Shown piece by piece: positions 32,701-53,455 of a DNA stretch of 64,000 bases (within the stretch, counting starts at the first letter, position 1; each line of letters begins with the position of its first letter). The notes beneath the pieces are model-generated. The model was not told where the DNA came from. It searched no databases and saw only the letters and a list, made by a program, of their open reading frames with translations. Made by a program: the position numbers and the translations under genes. The DNA comes from a virus. Its lineage: Duplodnaviria > Caudoviricetes. The DNA is taken from positions 29,434 through 93,433 of the IMG/VR virus record IMGVR_UViG_3300044556_000086; one strand, given 5' to 3'.

Positions 32701-33642
32701 ATGCTGGTAAAGAACTATTCACATCCATTGGATTGGAACATAGGTAGTTTGTTTGCTCATGATGATTTTGTGTGGAAAATTCTAGGAATATGTAAGGAAC
32801 TTGGAATAGACTCAAATATAAAGTATGTGTTTGGGTCTATTCCCTGCAAATTCCAGGGTGGGAGGATTCCTGCTCGTACAGCTACGTTAGAAAACGCAAG
32901 GAAAATCATAAGACGGTATAACAAAGAATTTGGGGTGTCTTGTAGGTTAACCTTTTCTAACGCACTTATCACTAAGGAAGATTTAGGGGATGACTTATCA
33001 AACAGTTTATTACAGATTCTTGAAGATAGTAATAAAGAGTTCGGGGTGCAAAATGGGTTAATGATTACTCTGGACATGTTGGCTGATTATGTAAGGGAAA
33101 CATATCCGTCTTTGGAATTAATCTCATCTCAGGTAAAACCTTCTGTTGAAGTAGGGTTTGGGGATGATAAAGATACAGTGGATTACTATAATAAATTATT
33201 TGATAAATATGATATCGTGGTAGTCAATCCATTCAAAGTACAGGACTATTCTTTCTTGGAACAGATTAAGTATAAAGATAGGGTGGAATTTATTGTAAAC
33301 CATAGGTGTATTCCTAATTGTCCGTTAGTAAAGAAGCATTATATTACTCAAATGCTGATATCCGATAAATTTTTATCTGATGAATCTTGTGATAAGGAAA
33401 AAGAAGATTTATCTGAAATTCATTCTTGGTGTGAGTCTAATAGAAAGAAATATCCATTATTAGGAACGTCTATGTCCGAAGATGATATAGATTTATTACT
33501 AAGTATGGGTTATAAGCACTTTAAAGTAGAGGGACGGGATAATGAAGGTTCTTGTTTCGTACGTGATTTAGGGGATTATGTATTTAATCATCATGAGTTT
33601 ACTAGGGTAAGTCAGGCTATTCTCGGTATGGTAGCTGTATAG
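32701..33642 (+). CDS. peptidase U32-like (Fe-S) protein
   Basis: QGGR; EFIVNHRCIPNCP; HFKVEGR resembles the U32 E..V...C and (F/L)KIEGR motifs. Confidence 0.65.
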   Translation: MLVKNYSHPLDWNIGSLFAHDDFVWKILGICKELGIDSNIKYVFGSIPCKFQGGRIPARTATLENARKIIRRYNKEFGVSCRLTFSNALITKEDLGDDLSNSLLQILEDSNKEFGVQNGLMITLDMLADYVRETYPSLELISSQVKPSVEVGFGDDKDTVDYYNKLFDKYDIVVVNPFKVQDYSFLEQIKYKDRVEFIVNHRCIPNCPLVKKHYITQMLISDKFLSDESCDKEKEDLSEIHSWCESNRKKYPLLGTSMSEDDIDLLLSMGYKHFKVEGRDNEGSCFVRDLGDYVFNHHEFTRVSQAILGMVAV

Positions 33643-45983: not shown

Positions 45984-46913
45984 ATGGCTATATCTTATGA
46001 TTTACGGATAAACGATAGTACACGAATTTCAGAGACAGTAAGTTCTCTCCCATTAGGGTTTATTTTTTATTCTGCTAATGGGTCGAGTACTTTTACAGGG
46101 GCTTTACCTCTAACTGGTGGTTTATATTCTAGGACAACATATAGCACCTTATGGAGTTACATCAACACAAAGGAAGGTGATGTAATCTCTGATTCTGATT
46201 GGAATACAAAGAAAAGTTCTAATTCTACAGTTCCTTATTACTCCTCTGGGGATGGTTCCACTACGTTCCGGGTACCGGATATTACAACTGTACCTTCAGA
46301 TGGTGGTAAGTGGTACGTCAATGCTCTCGGGTATATCACGAATGTAGGGAGTACAGACGTATCTACCTTATATACAGACTGCTATAAGGTATCTGGGGGT
46401 ACCATTACAGGGGATGTGACTATCAATAAAGCCTTGAAAGTTACAGGGGATGTCACGTGTAGTGGTTCCATTACAGGTTCAAAGGTATATAACGCATACT
46501 ATAATGACTATGCCGAATTCTTTCCGAGGGGTGAGAAGACAGAACCTGGAGATATCATAGCTTTAGATATGGATTCTGATGAAGAAAGGTATGTCAAGGC
46601 CACGGAGCATAGCAGGGTAGTAGGGGTACACTCTAATGAATTTGCTATGTTGATTGGTGGTAAACCTGTACCTGTAGGGGAAGATTTCTATAAGTATAAT
46701 CTGAAGGACTATATACCTGTATCTTTGGTAGGCCGTGTTACTGTAAAAGTTAGGGGTCTGGTAAAGAGAGGGGATTTATTGGTATGTTCTGCTACAAGGG
46801 GAGTAGGCAGGGTATATGATGAATCTAAAGATAGTCCAGTAGATATTTTTGGTATGTGTGTCGTAGGTTCCGACCGTGATGACTTACATACTGTAAAGGT
46901 ATTACTAAGATAG
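45984..46913 (+). CDS. tail fibre with collar domain and C-terminal intramolecular-chaperone (peptidase G2-like) domain
   Basis: G.L.L.G...SR..Y..LW...GDGSTTFRVPD; YNDYAEFF...GD...VGV.S...V.L.GRV.VKV.G....GD.L. Confidence 0.8.
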   Translation: MAISYDLRINDSTRISETVSSLPLGFIFYSANGSSTFTGALPLTGGLYSRTTYSTLWSYINTKEGDVISDSDWNTKKSSNSTVPYYSSGDGSTTFRVPDITTVPSDGGKWYVNALGYITNVGSTDVSTLYTDCYKVSGGTITGDVTINKALKVTGDVTCSGSITGSKVYNAYYNDYAEFFPRGEKTEPGDIIALDMDSDEERYVKATEHSRVVGVHSNEFAMLIGGKPVPVGEDFYKYNLKDYIPVSLVGRVTVKVRGLVKRGDLLVCSATRGVGRVYDESKDSPVDIFGMCVVGSDRDDLHTVKVLLR

Positions 46914-46929
46914 ATTGAGGAGTGTATAA

Positions 46930-48042
46930 ATGGGAGACAGGAAATGTTTTGTAGCTAAAAATGTAGATACATTCTTTATCATGCTGGGTATGGAGTGTAA
47001 TTTGAACTGTAAGTATTGCTTACAGCATGATTTAGTGGAACATCCGATACAGCACGACATTAACCCAGATATCTATGACTTCATAGAAGGTTGTGTAAAA
47101 GCTACTGAAAATACCATACGAATACAGTTCTTTGGTGGTGAACCTCTACTATTCTTTGGGTCTATTAAAGAAATAGTCACAGAGTTGAATCGTAGGGAGT
47201 TAAATGTAGGCTATTCTGTCATTACAAATGGGAAAGCTATTACACAGGAAATGGTAGACTTCTTCATAGATAATGACTTTACAGTAGGTATCTCATGGGA
47301 TGGATTTAATGTAATCAACTCTAGGGGTTTCGATGTATTCAAAGAAGGTAGTAGACAGAGAAATCTTATCTTGCAGTTGCCTGACTTGTGGATAACTTCT
47401 GTACTAAGTGCTAGTGCCTATCCAAAGGAACTACTAGATGCTCAGCAAAAGATGGATGATGAATACATGAAACGGCATGGATATCATGCTAAGTTCAATG
47501 TAGATGACTTGATGACCTTTGGGGAACTTCCGAAAGAAGTATCTGATATAGACCTGGAAAGGGTAGAGTCTGAAGTAAGGGATATGGCAAAAGAGTTTAT
47601 TCATGATTTAAAGACTCAAGCAGATATCAGTGACCATTATACAAGGAATGTGTATATCAGTAGTAAGTACTTTCTGTTAAGGGGTTTCTATAAAAAAGAA
47701 CTGGAAAATGAAGAAGATAGATATACAGGGGAAAAGTGCTGTTGTGGAAATGGCTACTATACTCTAAACCTAGACCTTAATGGTAATTTACAGGTATGTC
47801 ATAATAAGTCCACTCCTATAGGTACGATTTATGATAACTATGATGAGTATATTAGTAAGATAAAAAGTAATGATACTACTCATGATAGGGTGGATATGTG
47901 TAGGGAATGTCCTGCTGTATTCTCTTGTCGAGGTGGCTGTAAGCTGATAGAAGATAAGTACAGGGATACATATTGTTCCCTAAAACGAGCTACAAACGTT
48001 CCGGTATTAGAAGAAGTATTGAAAATTAATCAAATGGAGTAG
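46930..48042 (+). CDS. radical SAM/SPASM enzyme 1
   Basis: CNLNCKYC; FFGGEP; ITNG; ISWDG; SPASM C..G...GNLQVCH...CRECP...CRGGC...YC. Confidence 0.95.
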   Translation: MGDRKCFVAKNVDTFFIMLGMECNLNCKYCLQHDLVEHPIQHDINPDIYDFIEGCVKATENTIRIQFFGGEPLLFFGSIKEIVTELNRRELNVGYSVITNGKAITQEMVDFFIDNDFTVGISWDGFNVINSRGFDVFKEGSRQRNLILQLPDLWITSVLSASAYPKELLDAQQKMDDEYMKRHGYHAKFNVDDLMTFGELPKEVSDIDLERVESEVRDMAKEFIHDLKTQADISDHYTRNVYISSKYFLLRGFYKKELENEEDRYTGEKCCCGNGYYTLNLDLNGNLQVCHNKSTPIGTIYDNYDEYISKIKSNDTTHDRVDMCRECPAVFSCRGGCKLIEDKYRDTYCSLKRATNVPVLEEVLKINQME

Positions 48043-48048
48043 TTCAGT

Positions 48049-48315
48049 ATGGCAAATGGAACAATAAATCAGACGAATTTCACAGATTATTCTGATATCC
48101 GGGCTACTGGAAGTACCGAGATTAAAGCAGTACACATTAATGAGATGCAGGATGCTTTGACTAAGTTGGAAACTTATGTCAAGGGTGTAGATAATTGTGG
48201 GTATACGAATTGTTGTCAGTCTTGTCAGAATTCCTGTACTTGTCAGAGTTGCCAGGGTTGTCAAGGTTGTCAGTCTTGTCAGAATTCGTGTACTTGTCAG
48301 AGTTGCCAAAGGTAA
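48049..48315 (+). CDS. Cys/Gln-repeat precursor-like protein A
   Basis: 13 Cys in the last 39 aa; CQSCQNSCTCQSCQ occurs twice. Confidence 0.85.
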   Translation: MANGTINQTNFTDYSDIRATGSTEIKAVHINEMQDALTKLETYVKGVDNCGYTNCCQSCQNSCTCQSCQGCQGCQSCQNSCTCQSCQR

Positions 48316-48348
48316 GTAAGTTTTATATTCTTATTGTGGGGTATGTAA

Positions 48349-48702
48349 ATGTCAGTAGATACAAATACCAAAATAACATCTACAGAGATGGGTGATATAA
48401 AGACAAGGATAACTTCTCTAGTATCTAAATCTAAGCTTACATCTATAGATGTATCTAGTGTAAGTACTGTGGGTAAGATATCGAAGTCTACTATTATATC
48501 TTTGCAGGATGCTATATGGTCATTAGAAAGTAACTTCAGTAATAACTGTTGTGAATCGAATCATTGTCAGACGTGTCAGTCCTCGAAATGTCAGGGTTGT
48601 CAGAGTTGTCAAAGTCAGAGTTGTCAGTCCTCGAAATGTCAGTCATGTCAGTCCCAGTGTGATTGTAATTGTAATTGCCATAGTAATGACAACTCTGAAT
48701 AG
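48349..48702 (+). CDS. Cys/Gln-repeat precursor-like protein B
   Basis: 14 Cys in the C-terminal half; CQS/CQG/CQT repeats ending CDCNCNC. Confidence 0.85.
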   Translation: MSVDTNTKITSTEMGDIKTRITSLVSKSKLTSIDVSSVSTVGKISKSTIISLQDAIWSLESNFSNNCCESNHCQTCQSSKCQGCQSCQSQSCQSSKCQSCQSQCDCNCNCHSNDNSE

Positions 48703-48721
48703 TTAGGGGTGTGTTTATCCG

Positions 48722-49510
48722 ATGAATTTTCATGTATATAGACCTAAATTCATAGATAGTAGTAAATTTATAGGTAGATCTGTATCCGTGGTTTACTCTT
48801 TTGAGGAATCTGAGGGTAGTATATCTTTTGGGTTTAAGTTGATTAGTATGTTTGACTCCAGTAAGATATACTCTGACAGAGTAATTACTGTCAATAAAAA
48901 GGACTATTCTGGAGGTCTGTATTCTATAACTTCTTCTAGGACTGGGGATAGACTAGGTGTTCATATATTCCCTAAATATGCAGGGAGGAATGTATCAAGA
49001 CCTTTCCTGTTGGATGATGATGTGTGTAATCTGGTAAGGTTCTATATTACAGATGATTTGCAGAATATGTATATTTATTTATACTATAATGATACTTCTA
49101 CAGATATGTTGGGAAATTTGCCTATAGAAACTGTAGATTTAGGGATTAATAATAGTGTAGATGGTTTATTTTTTTCTAAATGTCCAGAAGTACGTGAAAA
49201 AATAACGAAATGGAATGCTAAGATAAATTTACAAAATAAAGTAAATGCTTATAATTCTATTTCTTACTTAGAAGGTCAGTTAGATGTTCTGTATAAAATC
49301 GTGGAAAAGCTAATAGAAAAGACAGGAATAGATGTATCTGAATATAAAGAACTCCTAGATAGTGTGGATTCTAATAGTGTACTAACTCTGAAAGATGTAA
49401 AAGTAGTTACGAAAGATATATTAGATGATAAGTCTAATGTGCGAAAAGCTCAGACAGAATACTACAAAGTGTTAAAGGGTTTTTCAGAAGGTGTGGATGA
49501 TAAGACATGA
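48722..49510 (+). CDS. uncharacterised protein in the radical SAM cluster
   Basis: 262-aa ORF; ATGA coupling to rSAM2. Confidence 0.75.
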   Translation: MNFHVYRPKFIDSSKFIGRSVSVVYSFEESEGSISFGFKLISMFDSSKIYSDRVITVNKKDYSGGLYSITSSRTGDRLGVHIFPKYAGRNVSRPFLLDDDVCNLVRFYITDDLQNMYIYLYYNDTSTDMLGNLPIETVDLGINNSVDGLFFSKCPEVREKITKWNAKINLQNKVNAYNSISYLEGQLDVLYKIVEKLIEKTGIDVSEYKELLDSVDSNSVLTLKDVKVVTKDILDDKSNVRKAQTEYYKVLKGFSEGVDDKT

Positions 49511-50454
49511 TAACTGATACTATGACGGGTAAGAATTTCATAAGTCTAGTACTAGGTCTGGACTGTAACTGTCAGTGTTCTTATTGTTATCAGAACATAT
49601 TAAAAGAGAAATGTCATAAGGTTCTGGGTAAGAAAGACTTAGATAGAGTTATCCGGTATATCACGGGTAGGTATAAGGAAAATACAAATACGGCTCTTAC
49701 TCTGTTTGGGGGGGAGCCTTTGTTGTATCTAGATGATGTAAAGTATGTTTTATCTTCATTAGATGGTACTCAAGGGATGTTTAAAAGGATATTTACGAAT
49801 GCTTACTTATTAACAGAGGAAATAGTAGACTTATTAAATAGATACCATGTTCATGTCATAATATCTAATGACGGAGAAGACTCTGAAAGGGTTAGGGGAT
49901 ATAATATCTTAAAGGATAAAAAGATAGTCCGTCTGATACAGTCTTTAGATTCTTATGCTATATCTAGTGTGGTATATTCTGGAAATGAGGATGTATTCAA
50001 AACAAACAGGTACCTTAGAAAGTATTTACATAATCTAAAGTCTAATATGTTCACACCTATGCAGGTGTATGCAGATACAGAAAAGTATGTAAATAACTTT
50101 GACTTTGATATGTACAGGGATTCTATGGTAAGATCATTTTCTGCTGGGTATCAGTGTATTTCTATTTTTGGTGGATATCGGAGTGGATTTTCAACTTTTA
50201 CAGATGGTTCTATTATGAACTTAAATACCAATACTCTGGTAGGTAAGATAGATAAAGACGGGATACGTCATGATTTTGATGTGGAAAAAGAGTTGAGGAA
50301 GAAATCTGGTTGTTTGTTTGAAGAGTGTGAATGGTATAAATCTAAATTCTGTTGTGGTAAGGTATACCAGATAGAAGATAATGTATTTTGTCGTAAGGTA
50401 GCAAAGGTACATAAGGAGATTTTTGATGAGATACAAGGGAGTGTACAAAAATGA
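49507..50454 (+). CDS. radical SAM enzyme 2
   Basis: CNCQCSYC; LFGGEP; FTNA; ISNDG; C-terminal Cys cluster. Confidence 0.9.
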   Translation: MITDTMTGKNFISLVLGLDCNCQCSYCYQNILKEKCHKVLGKKDLDRVIRYITGRYKENTNTALTLFGGEPLLYLDDVKYVLSSLDGTQGMFKRIFTNAYLLTEEIVDLLNRYHVHVIISNDGEDSERVRGYNILKDKKIVRLIQSLDSYAISSVVYSGNEDVFKTNRYLRKYLHNLKSNMFTPMQVYADTEKYVNNFDFDMYRDSMVRSFSAGYQCISIFGGYRSGFSTFTDGSIMNLNTNTLVGKIDKDGIRHDFDVEKELRKKSGCLFEECEWYKSKFCCGKVYQIEDNVFCRKVAKVHKEIFDEIQGSVQK

Positions 50455-51460
50455 CCCGTACTATGAAGTACAGGGTGTAGGGGTTTACCTGGGAAGTAAA
50501 TGTAACCAGGATTGTCTATATTGTAGGGATAAAGCTTTCAGAAAACACCCGGAAGTAACAAAAGACAGTGTTTCTAGGCTTCTAAAGTTTTTAGATACCT
50601 TGAAAGGTCTGAGAGGAATTACCTTAGTTGGTGGGGAACCTTTTCTATATACGGACTATTTAAATTATTTCTATGACTATGCTGATGATAGAAAGTTAAC
50701 TATTCATTTCATCACTAACTCTTTAGGGTTGCAGGAAGATAATATCTGGGATACGTTCATTAAGGATAGAAGGAATATACATATCCAGGTTTCTTATGAT
50801 GGGTCTAATAACTCTAGGGGGTACACTATTCTGGATAATAAGAAAGTTAGGGAAAGGTGTAGTACTCTCATAGCTGAAAGTCGTTTCAGTGTATGTTCTG
50901 TCATTACAAAGGATAGTTGGAACGTAGTATCTATATTCTCTGATTTTTTAAATTCTTTTGGGAATGTGTCTTTTAATTGGATGATTTCTCCCTTATTAGA
51001 GTCAGCTGGGTGTGAAGACTTGAATAAAGAGACACCTATAGATGATTTCTTATACTCTTTCTATCAGTTTTTAAATACGTATAAGTGGTCTGGATTAGCT
51101 AGGTATGTTCTGTTAAAATACCTAAGGTCTATGGATTATCATATAGGTAAAGAAGAGTTATTCTTAGAGATGGATGGTTCTATAATTCGTAGCTGTTTTG
51201 ACTATACACCTATAGGTCGATGGGATAGTGAGGGTATTTCTGAAATATTCAATAAGTCGAATTATTTATCCTTGAATAGTAGTTCCCCTAAGTGTTCTGG
51301 ATGTATGATAAATGAATTATGTATCAAAAGACCAGAGTTTTTCAGTCCGACTTCCTGTCAGATGAGAGTAGGTATGGAAGAATGCATATTCTCTATCATT
51401 AGGGAATCTGGATGTAGTACATTGGAAGAGTTTGAGGGGATGCTTCATGAATTACAATAA
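50423..51460 (+). CDS. radical SAM enzyme 3
   Basis: CNQDCLYC; LVGGEP; ITNS; VSYDG; DG...SC...CSGC....C. Confidence 0.9.
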   Translation: MMRYKGVYKNDPYYEVQGVGVYLGSKCNQDCLYCRDKAFRKHPEVTKDSVSRLLKFLDTLKGLRGITLVGGEPFLYTDYLNYFYDYADDRKLTIHFITNSLGLQEDNIWDTFIKDRRNIHIQVSYDGSNNSRGYTILDNKKVRERCSTLIAESRFSVCSVITKDSWNVVSIFSDFLNSFGNVSFNWMISPLLESAGCEDLNKETPIDDFLYSFYQFLNTYKWSGLARYVLLKYLRSMDYHIGKEELFLEMDGSIIRSCFDYTPIGRWDSEGISEIFNKSNYLSLNSSSPKCSGCMINELCIKRPEFFSPTSCQMRVGMEECIFSIIRESGCSTLEEFEGMLHELQ

Positions 51461-52472
51461 ACGAATACAGATGCCATTCAAACAGTTACGGGTTCATTTT
51501 GGGAATGACTGTAATATGAAGTGTTCTTTCTGTCATTCTATCAGTCTGAATACTAAGATAGACTATAACCCGGATAAGATAGTATCTATCTTTAATGAAG
51601 GTGGATTCACGGCTTGCAGTTATGTGGGTGGAGAAACCACACTATATCTGGATAAGATAGTAGACCTTTCACACAGGTTACCCGCAGGGGTTCGTAACTC
51701 CTTTACAACCAACGGGTCTACTATGGAGGGGGATATACTGGATAAGACTTTAAGGAATATGTTTGTTGTATCTGTGTCTGTGAATGAGTTCACACTGGGT
51801 AGTCTGAAATATGAAGGATTGAAACAGATATACCAGTTAGGTACTTCATGTGTGTGGGATGGAAAACATACCTTAGATGAGATAGATAAGATGTATGATG
51901 AGGTATCTGAGGGTCTTGGTTATCTAAAGTTTCCGTATTATAATTTAGTTCACAGGACAGGTACCAGTTCAGAATTTCACTATACTGATAGTCAAATAGA
52001 TAGGTTCTTATCTGATATAACCTATCGGTTACAGTTAGCCTGTCATTCCTTTGTACGGGGAAAGATTTCTAGGTATTCTATGTTACTACTAACCTTGAAT
52101 ACTTGGTTCTCTTATAAAGGGTTTGGGTGCTGGAGAGATGATTATATTACAGTACAGGCTGATGGGAAGTACTCTCCATGTTCTTATTCTCCTATTTCTT
52201 TCGATGACTTTGAGAAAGCTGATGCTTTCATACGTGGGTCACTTCATAATAAGTTCAAGTGTGACAGTTGTATCGTACCGAAAAACCAGTGTAAAATGTG
52301 TTATCTAAGTCTGGATGATACAGAATGTACAATTTTGCGGGGAGTGTACCAGATTTACATGAGAACCTTAAAGAAGTATCGAATTAACTATATGGAAGTG
52401 TATGATAGGTTACAGCGATACCCGTTTACTATACAAGGAGGGGTTCATTGTGGGGTTGGCGATTCCATATAA
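51447..52472 (+). CDS. radical SAM enzyme 4
   Basis: CNMKCSFC; GGET; TTNG; GC...DGKYSPC...CDSC....C..C. Confidence 0.9.
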   Translation: MNYNKRIQMPFKQLRVHFGNDCNMKCSFCHSISLNTKIDYNPDKIVSIFNEGGFTACSYVGGETTLYLDKIVDLSHRLPAGVRNSFTTNGSTMEGDILDKTLRNMFVVSVSVNEFTLGSLKYEGLKQIYQLGTSCVWDGKHTLDEIDKMYDEVSEGLGYLKFPYYNLVHRTGTSSEFHYTDSQIDRFLSDITYRLQLACHSFVRGKISRYSMLLLTLNTWFSYKGFGCWRDDYITVQADGKYSPCSYSPISFDDFEKADAFIRGSLHNKFKCDSCIVPKNQCKMCYLSLDDTECTILRGVYQIYMRTLKKYRINYMEVYDRLQRYPFTIQGGVHCGVGDSI

Positions 52473-53421
52473 CGGAATAGATTACAAAAAGTATAATCAA
52501 TTTCTGGAAGATAGAAAATCAGATATAGATTACATATACATAGCTAATAACCCTGTATTCAAGGATAGGGATAGGAATATAGCTTATACTGTCTTACAAG
52601 ATGATATAGGGGAAGGATACTATAAAGATTGTGAGAAGTTTCTAGAATATAGACCTAAAGATGTACCTATATTCTTAGATTGTACGGAGTTTTACCATCC
52701 ATCAAACTATAACTCTATGAAAGGGGAAATAGAGTCTTTTCTGATACCCGAATTAGATAGGTACTCTTTTACAGGTATCATAACTTGTGATTACGGGGTA
52801 GCTTCTTATATTAAGAATAATACAGACTATGACGTTATCATATATGGACTATCTAATCTTAGAGCTATGTATTCTTACGAAGAAGACATAGAGGTATCCG
52901 ACTTCATACTGCCATTGGATACGTTACGGAACCGGGATTACGTAGAATACCTAAAGAAAGTAAAGCAGGATTATAATAAAAACTCGTATGACGCTAAATT
53001 CCAAGCTGTTGTAAATAATAACAGGTACTATGGAGATATGTGTTTCAATCAGGATGCCTATAAAGTAACTCGTACAGGGTATATGAAATATGGTCAGTGG
53101 AATAGACCATACGATGAATTCCGTAAGAACTGGGTGCTTCCAAGGTGGTTGAAGATTTACGATGACTTGATTGAAACCTATATCATAGAAGGGTTATATA
53201 CTTATTCAGTAGAAGGGTTATTTAAGACAGTAGATGCTTATATTCATAGAAGTGATGATATTCTACTATCTGATATCGTGTCTACTAGGTTACAAGATTA
53301 TCCAGTAAAAGATATAAAAGGGAAGTTGGCTAGGTGTATGTGCAGGGAATGTGATGTTTCTTGTACGACATGTAAGGGTATTCTATCCGAGTACTATACT
53401 TCTCATAACATTGAAGCCTAG
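52450..53421 (+). CDS. divergent peptidase U32-like protein
   Basis: DIDYIY, GIITCDYGVASYI and AVVN; C-terminal C..C...C..C. Confidence 0.55.
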   Translation: MGLAIPYNGIDYKKYNQFLEDRKSDIDYIYIANNPVFKDRDRNIAYTVLQDDIGEGYYKDCEKFLEYRPKDVPIFLDCTEFYHPSNYNSMKGEIESFLIPELDRYSFTGIITCDYGVASYIKNNTDYDVIIYGLSNLRAMYSYEEDIEVSDFILPLDTLRNRDYVEYLKKVKQDYNKNSYDAKFQAVVNNNRYYGDMCFNQDAYKVTRTGYMKYGQWNRPYDEFRKNWVLPRWLKIYDDLIETYIIEGLYTYSVEGLFKTVDAYIHRSDDILLSDIVSTRLQDYPVKDIKGKLARCMCRECDVSCTTCKGILSEYYTSHNIEA

Positions 53422-53429
53422 ATAATCAT

Positions 53430-53455
53430 AGGGCAGTTGAAAGACTGTCCTTTTT
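53430..53455 (+). terminator. Rho-independent terminator closing the tail/rSAM operon
   Basis: AGGGCAGT-TGAAAG-ACTGTCCT followed by TTTT. Confidence 0.8.

Follow-up and report, generated by a model that had tools for sequence, protein, structure and literature searches.

Proteins A and B, two cysteine-rich proteins encoded by adjoining phage genes, are read here as a matched pair that belongs to a tail-fibre module and serves as substrate for SPASM-containing radical SAM (rSAM) enzymes, and probably not as precursors of released peptides, a reading to which we attach about even confidence. Small peptide natural products are the known setting of rSAM/SPASM thioether chemistry, joined in 2026 by one archaeal Cys-rich protein. 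Here, an enzyme of this type is tied to a structured protein pair in the host-recognition (fibre) module of many phages, which include 40-kb temperate siphoviruses of gut Negativicutes at one end and jumbo myoviruses at the other. If the pair is indeed cross-linked and part of the virion, it would be the first virus-particle protein with enzymatic radical cross-links, and RiPP-type chemistry would have acquired a new architecture.

The stretch of DNA analysed, referred to as the window, covers the final 64 kb of an IMG/VR virus record of 93 kb and ~45% completeness. The source is a giant “gut-type” phage, and the T4-like baseplate hub and wedge and the tape-measure-like protein encoded by the record indicate a jumbo phage with a contractile tail. 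The genes for A and B lie in a tightly packed, same-strand string (45984-53421), located 3' of a run of fibre genes and ordered fibre, rSAM1, A, B, 262-aa protein, rSAM2, rSAM3, rSAM4, and U32-like protein (Table 1). A terminator-like hairpin at 53430 separates the string from a primase-like gene. The C-terminal ~140 residues of the tail-fibre protein form an auto-chaperone-like domain of the Peptidase_G2 IMC type. At the DNA level, the complete string matched none of 50,697 phage records searched.

Table 1. Features of the gene string encoding proteins A and B, in window coordinates.
Feature	Coordinates	Strand	Evidence or remark
Tail-fibre protein, 309 aa	45984..46913	+	Pfam PF11962 (E 6.6e-6) and Collar; PHROG tail-fibre families
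rSAM1, radical SAM with full SPASM, 370 aa	46930..48042	+	Motifs, Pfam, NCBIfam, PDB
Protein A, 88 aa, 13 Cys	48049..48315	+	ORF, motifs, AF2, unit HMM
Direct duplication in A core, 43 nt	48212-48254 and 48266-48308	+	98% identical
Protein B, 117 aa, 14 Cys	48349..48702	+	ORF, motifs, AF2, relatives
CDCNCNC tail of B	48658..48678	+	6-nt period (Tandem Repeats Finder)
Accessory protein, 262 aa	48722..49510	+	Homologous to JWF gp029
rSAM2, Cys-poor C-terminal part, 315 aa	49507..50454	+	Pfam, NCBIfam, motif scan
rSAM3, radical SAM, 345 aa	50423..51460	+	Pfam, NCBIfam, motif scan
rSAM4, SPASM-like C-terminus, 346 aa	51432..52472	+	Motif scan
U32-like protein, 339 aa	52402..53421	+	ESM Atlas, 0.95 to Peptidase_U32 clusters
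Terminator-like hairpin closing the gene string	53430..53451	+	Consensus match only

The 262-aa protein has no match in Pfam, PHROG, or NCBIfam and no credible relative in the ESM Atlas, and homologues of it are encoded at four of the other loci described below (L004, L027, L032, and L037). The U32-like protein has no Pfam match, and its gene was ruled out as a core member of the module because it is missing from all other A/B loci examined. A 100-aa antisense ORF (48007-48309, minus strand), rich in LTRLTT-type repeats, was rejected as a gene because it results from reading the CQ repeat in reverse, and it should stay unannotated. Another ORF, at 32701-33642 among virion genes, was assigned to no family in a PHROG scan. 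No other real ORF in the 64-kb window is Cys-rich in the manner of A and B.

Radical SAM enzymes of the gene string

All four rSAM proteins of the string contain a CxxxCxxC motif at residues 20-27 together with a GGE motif, and this early start of the rSAM motif leaves no room for an N-terminal RRE in any of them. The most complete architecture is that of rSAM1, in which C23xxxC27xxC30 and a GGE at aa 69 are followed by the seven-Cys SPASM signature (CX9-15GX4C ... CX2CX5CX3C ... C), represented by C272-X12-G-X4-C290, C324xxC327x5C333x3C337, and C349. Its matches to Pfam Radical_SAM and Fer4_12 are above the cut-offs. A SPASM-like variant is present in rSAM4, with C233-X11-G-X4-C250, then CxxCx6CxxC and C299.

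The best NCBIfam match of rSAM1 is to the PapB family (NF047865; E 2.3e-25, aligned over residues 12-340 of 370), with a score of 89.6 bits against a cut-off of 340. Judged by these scores, the PapB family is the nearest relative of rSAM1, which is not a member of it. The third-best match is to QhpD (TIGR03906), with 65.5 bits against a cut-off of 453, and the scores for SCIFF/CteB (TIGR03974; 45.4 against 425 bits) and CrpC (TIGR04463; 37.5 against 525 bits, with no RRE in rSAM1) likewise place the enzyme outside those families. The nearest PDB chains are those of anSME and CteB. The SCIFF precursor on which CteB acts is a six-Cys peptide of ~45 residues, in contrast to the 88 and 117 residues of A and B with their 13 and 14 Cys. 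While the enzyme class of rSAM1 is clear from its motifs, any reaction type assigned to it would be a guess from the nearest relatives, as all of these scores fall far below the curated cut-offs. Distant relatives of rSAM1 occur in cultured phages.

Architecture of proteins A and B

Protein A consists of INEMQDALTKLE...VDNC followed by a core with 13 Cys residues, and protein B of IISLQDAIWSLESNFSNNC followed by a 14-Cys core with a CDCNCNC end. The initial annotation, which was made from the DNA sequence and described A and B as precursor-like proteins with a common leader and expandable CQx cores, had placed both ORFs and their motifs at these positions, and the Cys counts it gave were reproduced. 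In A, one repeat unit (aa 13-42, with a helix at 27-45) leads to the junction VDNCG and a Cys-Gln core at aa 50-86. In B, two repeat units, of which the first is degenerate (helix 11-28) and the second has its helix at 46-63, are followed by the junction SNFSNNC, a Cys-Gln core at aa 67-110, and a short acidic tail. The direct duplication in the A core, first reported as 42 nt, is real and spans 43 nt, and the CQSSKCQ repeats of B and its CDCNCNC end were recovered by Tandem Repeats Finder with periods of 24 nt and, for the CNCNC tail, 6 nt. Both the duplication in A and the repeats in B are far beyond chance.

Neither protein matched any family in Pfam, PHROGs, or NCBIfam, and tblastn of B against phage records was likewise without a match. 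Both proteins of the window end without a Hint domain (Pfam) and without an HxH motif. AF2 monomer models of A and B were confident in the leader helices only (pLDDT 75-84 for the helix of A), and the cores were unstructured, with pLDDT <50, as would be a segment that depends on partners, metals, or modification. Foldseek comparison of the B model with BFVD and the PDB returned a single uncharacterised family member and no known fold.

Both families are large and known only from metagenomes and prophages. Metagenome protein collections contain ~40-50 cluster representatives of each, all unnamed, and dozens of homologues of both A and B keep the same layout. A-types start with MAxNGxIxxTxFTD...KAVHIxELRxAIxxLExYxxNVDNCG, while B-types have a similar first segment and then ...LQxAIxxLESxFSNNC. 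After the junction, the cores proceed in CQx, CQxxx, and CxC steps and often end in a CDCNCNC-type stretch followed by an acidic, Gly-rich tail. The initial annotation had proposed that homologues of the leader be collected, on the view that a motif not conserved among them would speak against its interpretation. The motif proved to be conserved, with A36 and L40 invariant in A-types and L59/E60 present in at least 90% of B-types. The view that the cores are expandable was also borne out, as core length varies between lineages (28-92 residues) and internal duplications occur.

Across 82 cores, Cys makes up 30% and Gln 20% of residues, and the commonest Cys spacing is 3. The residue after Cys is Gln in 54% of cases, Glu in 5%, and Asp in 4%, and 80% of all Gln residues directly follow a Cys. 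This composition fits a pairing of donor and acceptor residues. Internal Cys-Gln thioesters occur in complement C3 and in Gram-positive adhesin domains, and if A and B formed reactive bonds of this type, the fibre could attach covalently to its receptor. The arguments for this idea are limited to the strict pairing of Cys with Gln and the placement in a fibre module, and we consider it extremely improbable, as known thioester domains need a folded pocket and form without radical SAM enzymes, the ~5% of Cys-Glu sites would be unable to form such a bond by the same route, and no sequence similarity to thioester domains was found in Pfam.

The division into leader and core is also that of a classical phage-encoded RiPP, in which helical leaders would guide the rSAM enzymes and the Cys-Gln cores would be released at lysis as ranthipeptide-like antimicrobial or signalling peptides. 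The kinship of the rSAM1 SPASM enzyme with PapB and other peptide maturases, the repeat-built core, which has a counterpart in PapA-type precursors, and the U32-like putative peptidase at the end of the window string are all in keeping with this scheme, and the disordered AF2 cores fit a classical RiPP core equally well. We nevertheless regard it as unlikely, one reason being the nature of the leader itself.

The A-leader profile (alignment A4) was searched against 1.84 billion representatives (E ≤ 0.001) and matched 2277 of them. Among the best 150 of these 2277, ~40 are A-types by our own tally, and ~85 are Cys-poor proteins with three tandem units of ~37 residues, as delimited by HMMER. The latter are either stand-alone proteins of ~115 residues or long proteins that carry the block of units at the C-terminus, some of them together with Ig or M23 peptidase domains. 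A further three of the best 150 are A-types in which a Hint domain directly follows the core (...CNCNCS then CFIAGT...; Pfam Hom_end_hint). Another four (P0218, P0231, P0189, and P0178) combine three units and a Cys-rich tail in one chain, and the gene for P0218 is followed by three rSAM genes. An earlier word-sharing search had found no long proteins closely related to the A N-terminus; the unit emerged later, from the exhaustive profile search. Neither the leader profile nor a triple-repeat protein had a meaningful match among PDB sequences.

The unit, a strand and a helix within ~37 residues (WTD..L..G...IKAVHI.ELR.AI..L), has no counterpart in Pfam, PHROG, or the PDB, and the triple repeat, carried by P0106, P0145, P0190, and ~80 further representatives, looks like an undescribed domain. 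An HMM built exclusively from Cys-poor triple-repeat proteins matched A-types once each, including A of the window at aa 21-37 (E 1e-6), and matched B-types at residues 3-30 or 40-64, with no match to B of the window. Two B relatives (P0236 and P0234) contain two canonical units and adjoin one-unit A relatives of the A-Hint fusion type. By its sequence, then, the A leader is one unit of a structural repeat that is widespread and normally triple, which counts against the RiPP scheme. Because one unit in A and two in B (canonical in relatives of B) add up to the three of the natural domain, we infer that A and B may form a complex in which a three-unit domain is completed across the two chains. 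The proposal that the shared helix is a trimerisation helix thus came close, the unit being one that is normally tripled in tandem, although a pseudo-trimer of A and B fits better than a homotrimer. A role of the helix as an enzyme-recognition leader is an alternative.

The core lengths of A and B, measured from the junction Cys to the last Cys in proteins of the same genome, vary together, with r = 0.91 for the 23 distinct pairs and r = 0.89 when the pairs are grouped into 14 lineages (permutation p = 5e-5). Over the range of 28-92 residues, the cores of A and B differ by a mean of 5.6 residues. Close relatives change both cores together, e.g., 92/84 versus 71/64, and in several genomes, the repeats of A and B have a common flavour. 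A constraint from a shared enzyme or gene conversion, instead of pairing, could also produce such co-variation. Recent gene conversion is not the cause in the window, since A and B there have no DNA repeat family in common. For the RiPP scheme, proteins that are always paired, matched in length, and built on a count of one and two units are a second difficulty.

Genomic linkage to tail-fibre genes

The loci fetched for analysis of gene context comprised 24 from IMG/VR, 47 from metagenomes, and 3 from genomes. All 51 of the B loci with at least 2.5 kb of flank on both sides have an A gene on the same strand within 3 kb and an ORF with CxxxCxxC within 4 kb. Most often, the fibre gene is followed by an rSAM1 orthologue (42-46% identical) and then by A and B, with a tail-fibre gene directly upstream in nearly all loci, and the conserved part of these upstream fibres is the C-terminal, auto-chaperone-like domain of ~140 residues. 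Orthologues of rSAM1 adjoin A/B in most loci and those of rSAM4 in four (L001, L004, L027, and L032). One of these, on a 281-kb contig (L001), is rearranged to fibre, B, an unknown gene, rSAM4-like, A, and fibre, and still lies inside the fibre block. In a 74-kb phage judged 100% complete by CheckV, the sole rSAM gene is an rSAM1 orthologue that adjoins A/B, which suggests that one enzyme suffices.

The module is found both in small siphoviruses, in which it is located 3' of the tape-measure, Dit, and fibre genes, and in jumbo myoviruses. Many of the small-siphovirus modules are in prophages within contigs of 0.5-1 Mb, and one is in a prophage of the cultured strain Megasphaera sueciensis TMW 2.2488. 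The named prophage hosts, M. sueciensis, an Acidaminococcaceae MAG, and a Mailhella MAG, are all strict anaerobes and would suit oxygen-sensitive enzymes. This persistence of the module in the fibre operons of unrelated phage types argues further against peptide precursors, as does the observation that no leader protease or exporter is conserved with the A/B loci, the U32-like gene being confined to the window. Of the original interpretation, the conserved leader and the expandable cores therefore stand, while its “precursor-like” reading has become less convincing in view of the fused forms and the fibre setting.

Two contigs of the IMG/VR collection, of 107 kb (L012/L029) and 105 kb (L014/L018), each carry two non-identical fibre-rSAM-A-B modules 50-59 kb apart; the module may have been truly duplicated, or two related phages of ~50 kb may have been joined into one chimeric contig. 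A 167-kb phage contig that is ~60% complete (L011; IMGVR_UViG_3300045988_167296) contains 13 Radical_SAM matches (E ≤ 0.001), at about 60-65 kb, 92-106 kb, and 126 kb. Four of them surround the A/B module, the remaining nine are on the opposite strand in other parts of the contig, and the total is unusually large for a phage.

A candidate cross-linked fibre component and related systems

The observations on repeat units, core lengths, and gene context can be combined into a tentative model, in which we place somewhat less than even confidence: phages of anaerobes would build a two-chain “cysteine ladder” with a pseudo-trimeric head and thioether-zipped tails that acts as a fibre tip or accessory. 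The single unit of A and the two units of B would assemble into one three-unit head, from which two Cys-Gln tails of nearly equal length, as their co-variation suggests, would run side by side. SPASM rSAM enzymes would then cross-link the tails, within or between chains, most likely through ranthionine-type thioethers that join a Cys sulfur to a Gln or Glu carbon. The product would be a covalently stapled rod or knob of tunable length that is attached to, or works with, the fibre encoded upstream. It would remain protein-sized and part of the fibre, and its length would change by gain or loss of repeats, of which the duplication in A may be an example.

The proposed chemistry draws on the nearest characterised enzymes, PapB and CrpC. 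The interchange of Gln and Glu after Cys, the kinship of rSAM1 with PapB, QhpD, and CrpC, and the precedent of CrpA favour Cys-to-Gln/Glu thioethers. The motif of PapA is Cys-X3-Asp. Serial motifs of that type were not found in the cores of A and B, which read CQxCQ and hence contain Cys-X3-Gln as an analogue. PapA/PapB (freyrasin; NF047865) is similar to the window module in its serial Cys motifs and differs in that the acceptor in the window would be Gln instead of Asp, the substrates are paired and have structured heads, and the genes lie in a fibre operon. QhpD is a SPASM rSAM enzyme that forms Cys-to-Asp/Glu thioethers in a protein subunit that stays in its complex. This QhpC/QhpD system of quinohemoprotein amine dehydrogenase modifies one small, repeat-free enzyme subunit and has no link to phage.

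A parallel in substrate design is the Crp system of Methanococcus voltae, in which the SPASM enzyme CrpC installs ranthionine-type thioethers on a Cys-rich repeat protein, and the substrates CrpA and CrpB are paralogues with a common N-terminal domain and a noted C-x-x-Q/D motif (PMC13692751, 2026). It shares with the window a SPASM rSAM and two protein-sized, Cys-rich repeat substrates with a common N-terminal domain. Unlike the window module, it is archaeal and cellular, its enzyme has an RRE, its repeats are 17-34 residues long and not of the CQx type, and it has neither a fibre context nor a three-unit head. Literature searches that combined radical SAM, SPASM, or thioether with phage tail fibre or virion found no description of such a system, and in one paper, an rSAM maturase of a phage is assigned to antibiotic synthesis with no evidence given (PMC12801897). 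If A and B do form a stapled part of the virion, phages would harden or tune their adsorption apparatus with RiPP-type enzymes, phage “rSAM maturase” genes annotated for antibiotic synthesis would need to be re-read, and a modular, length-programmable cross-linked scaffold would be at hand.

The long-tail-fibre tip of phage T4, formed by gp37, is a His-x-His iron needle with short-period metal ligands on a three-fold axis. By analogy, the Cys tails of A and B might form a metal-thiolate rod that binds Zn, Fe, or Cu between chains, with the rSAM enzymes acting elsewhere or on only part of the tail. Such a rod would accord with 30% Cys at a spacing of 2-3 residues and with the HxH found after each unit helix in P0178 and in ORFs of Ralstonia phage RP12, the arrangement to be expected of a metal site on a three-fold axis. 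The ligands of T4 gp37 are His instead of Cys, however, and T4 has no need of radical SAM enzymes, whereas the A/B genes are strictly coupled to genes for SPASM rSAMs. In addition, the Gln or Glu after each Cys has no obvious metal-binding role, and HxH is absent from A and B of the window. On balance, the metal rod appears quite unlikely.

A fibre protein that itself contains a Cys-rich tract is encoded by the cultured Achromobacter phage JWF (NC_029075), whose gp36-like fibre gp028 contains NCNCDCNCNC directly before a Hint domain. The following genes encode gp029, a homologue of the 262-aa protein of the window (E 5e-12), the rSAM gp030, and lysis proteins. JWF thus resembles the window in having an rSAM in the fibre module, a homologue of the 262-aa protein, and a Cys-Asn tract similar to the CDCNCNC of B, and it differs in that the tract is fused to a T4 gp36-like fibre and followed by a self-cleaving Hint domain, with no CQ repeats, A/B pair, or repeat-unit head. 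No experimental characterisation of the JWF fibre or rSAM genes was found in the literature. That a Cys-Asn tract like the end of B is part of a real fibre protein is a further argument against the release of A and B as peptides. Hint domains are present in the relatives P0100, P0132, and P0153 as well as in JWF gp028; in the A-Hint fusion P0100, the domain is preceded by CNCNCS, and the Hint domain fused to A relatives has a nucleophilic Cys. In the small siphoviruses, an ORF encoding a 129-aa Hint-like protein follows B (L012:10306-10695 and 44 further loci). This ORF (Pfam Hint_2, E 2.8e-4) has a stop/start overlap with B and lacks an N-terminal nucleophilic Cys.

The examples of JWF, RP12, and the small siphoviruses indicate that Cys-rich tails, rSAMs, Hint domains, and fibres associate across unrelated phages. 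No Cys-rich neighbour was found in the ORF translated from a Campylobacter phage rSAM neighbourhood. In RP12 (NC_041911), an unannotated 65-aa ORF (L085:840-1037) encodes a unit-like helix, an HTH (His-Thr-His) sequence, and a NCNCNCAC tail. It is located between a virion structural gene and a gene for a 295-aa protein, which is followed by three rSAM genes, and the adjoining ORF074 encodes two similar helices, each followed by HTH.
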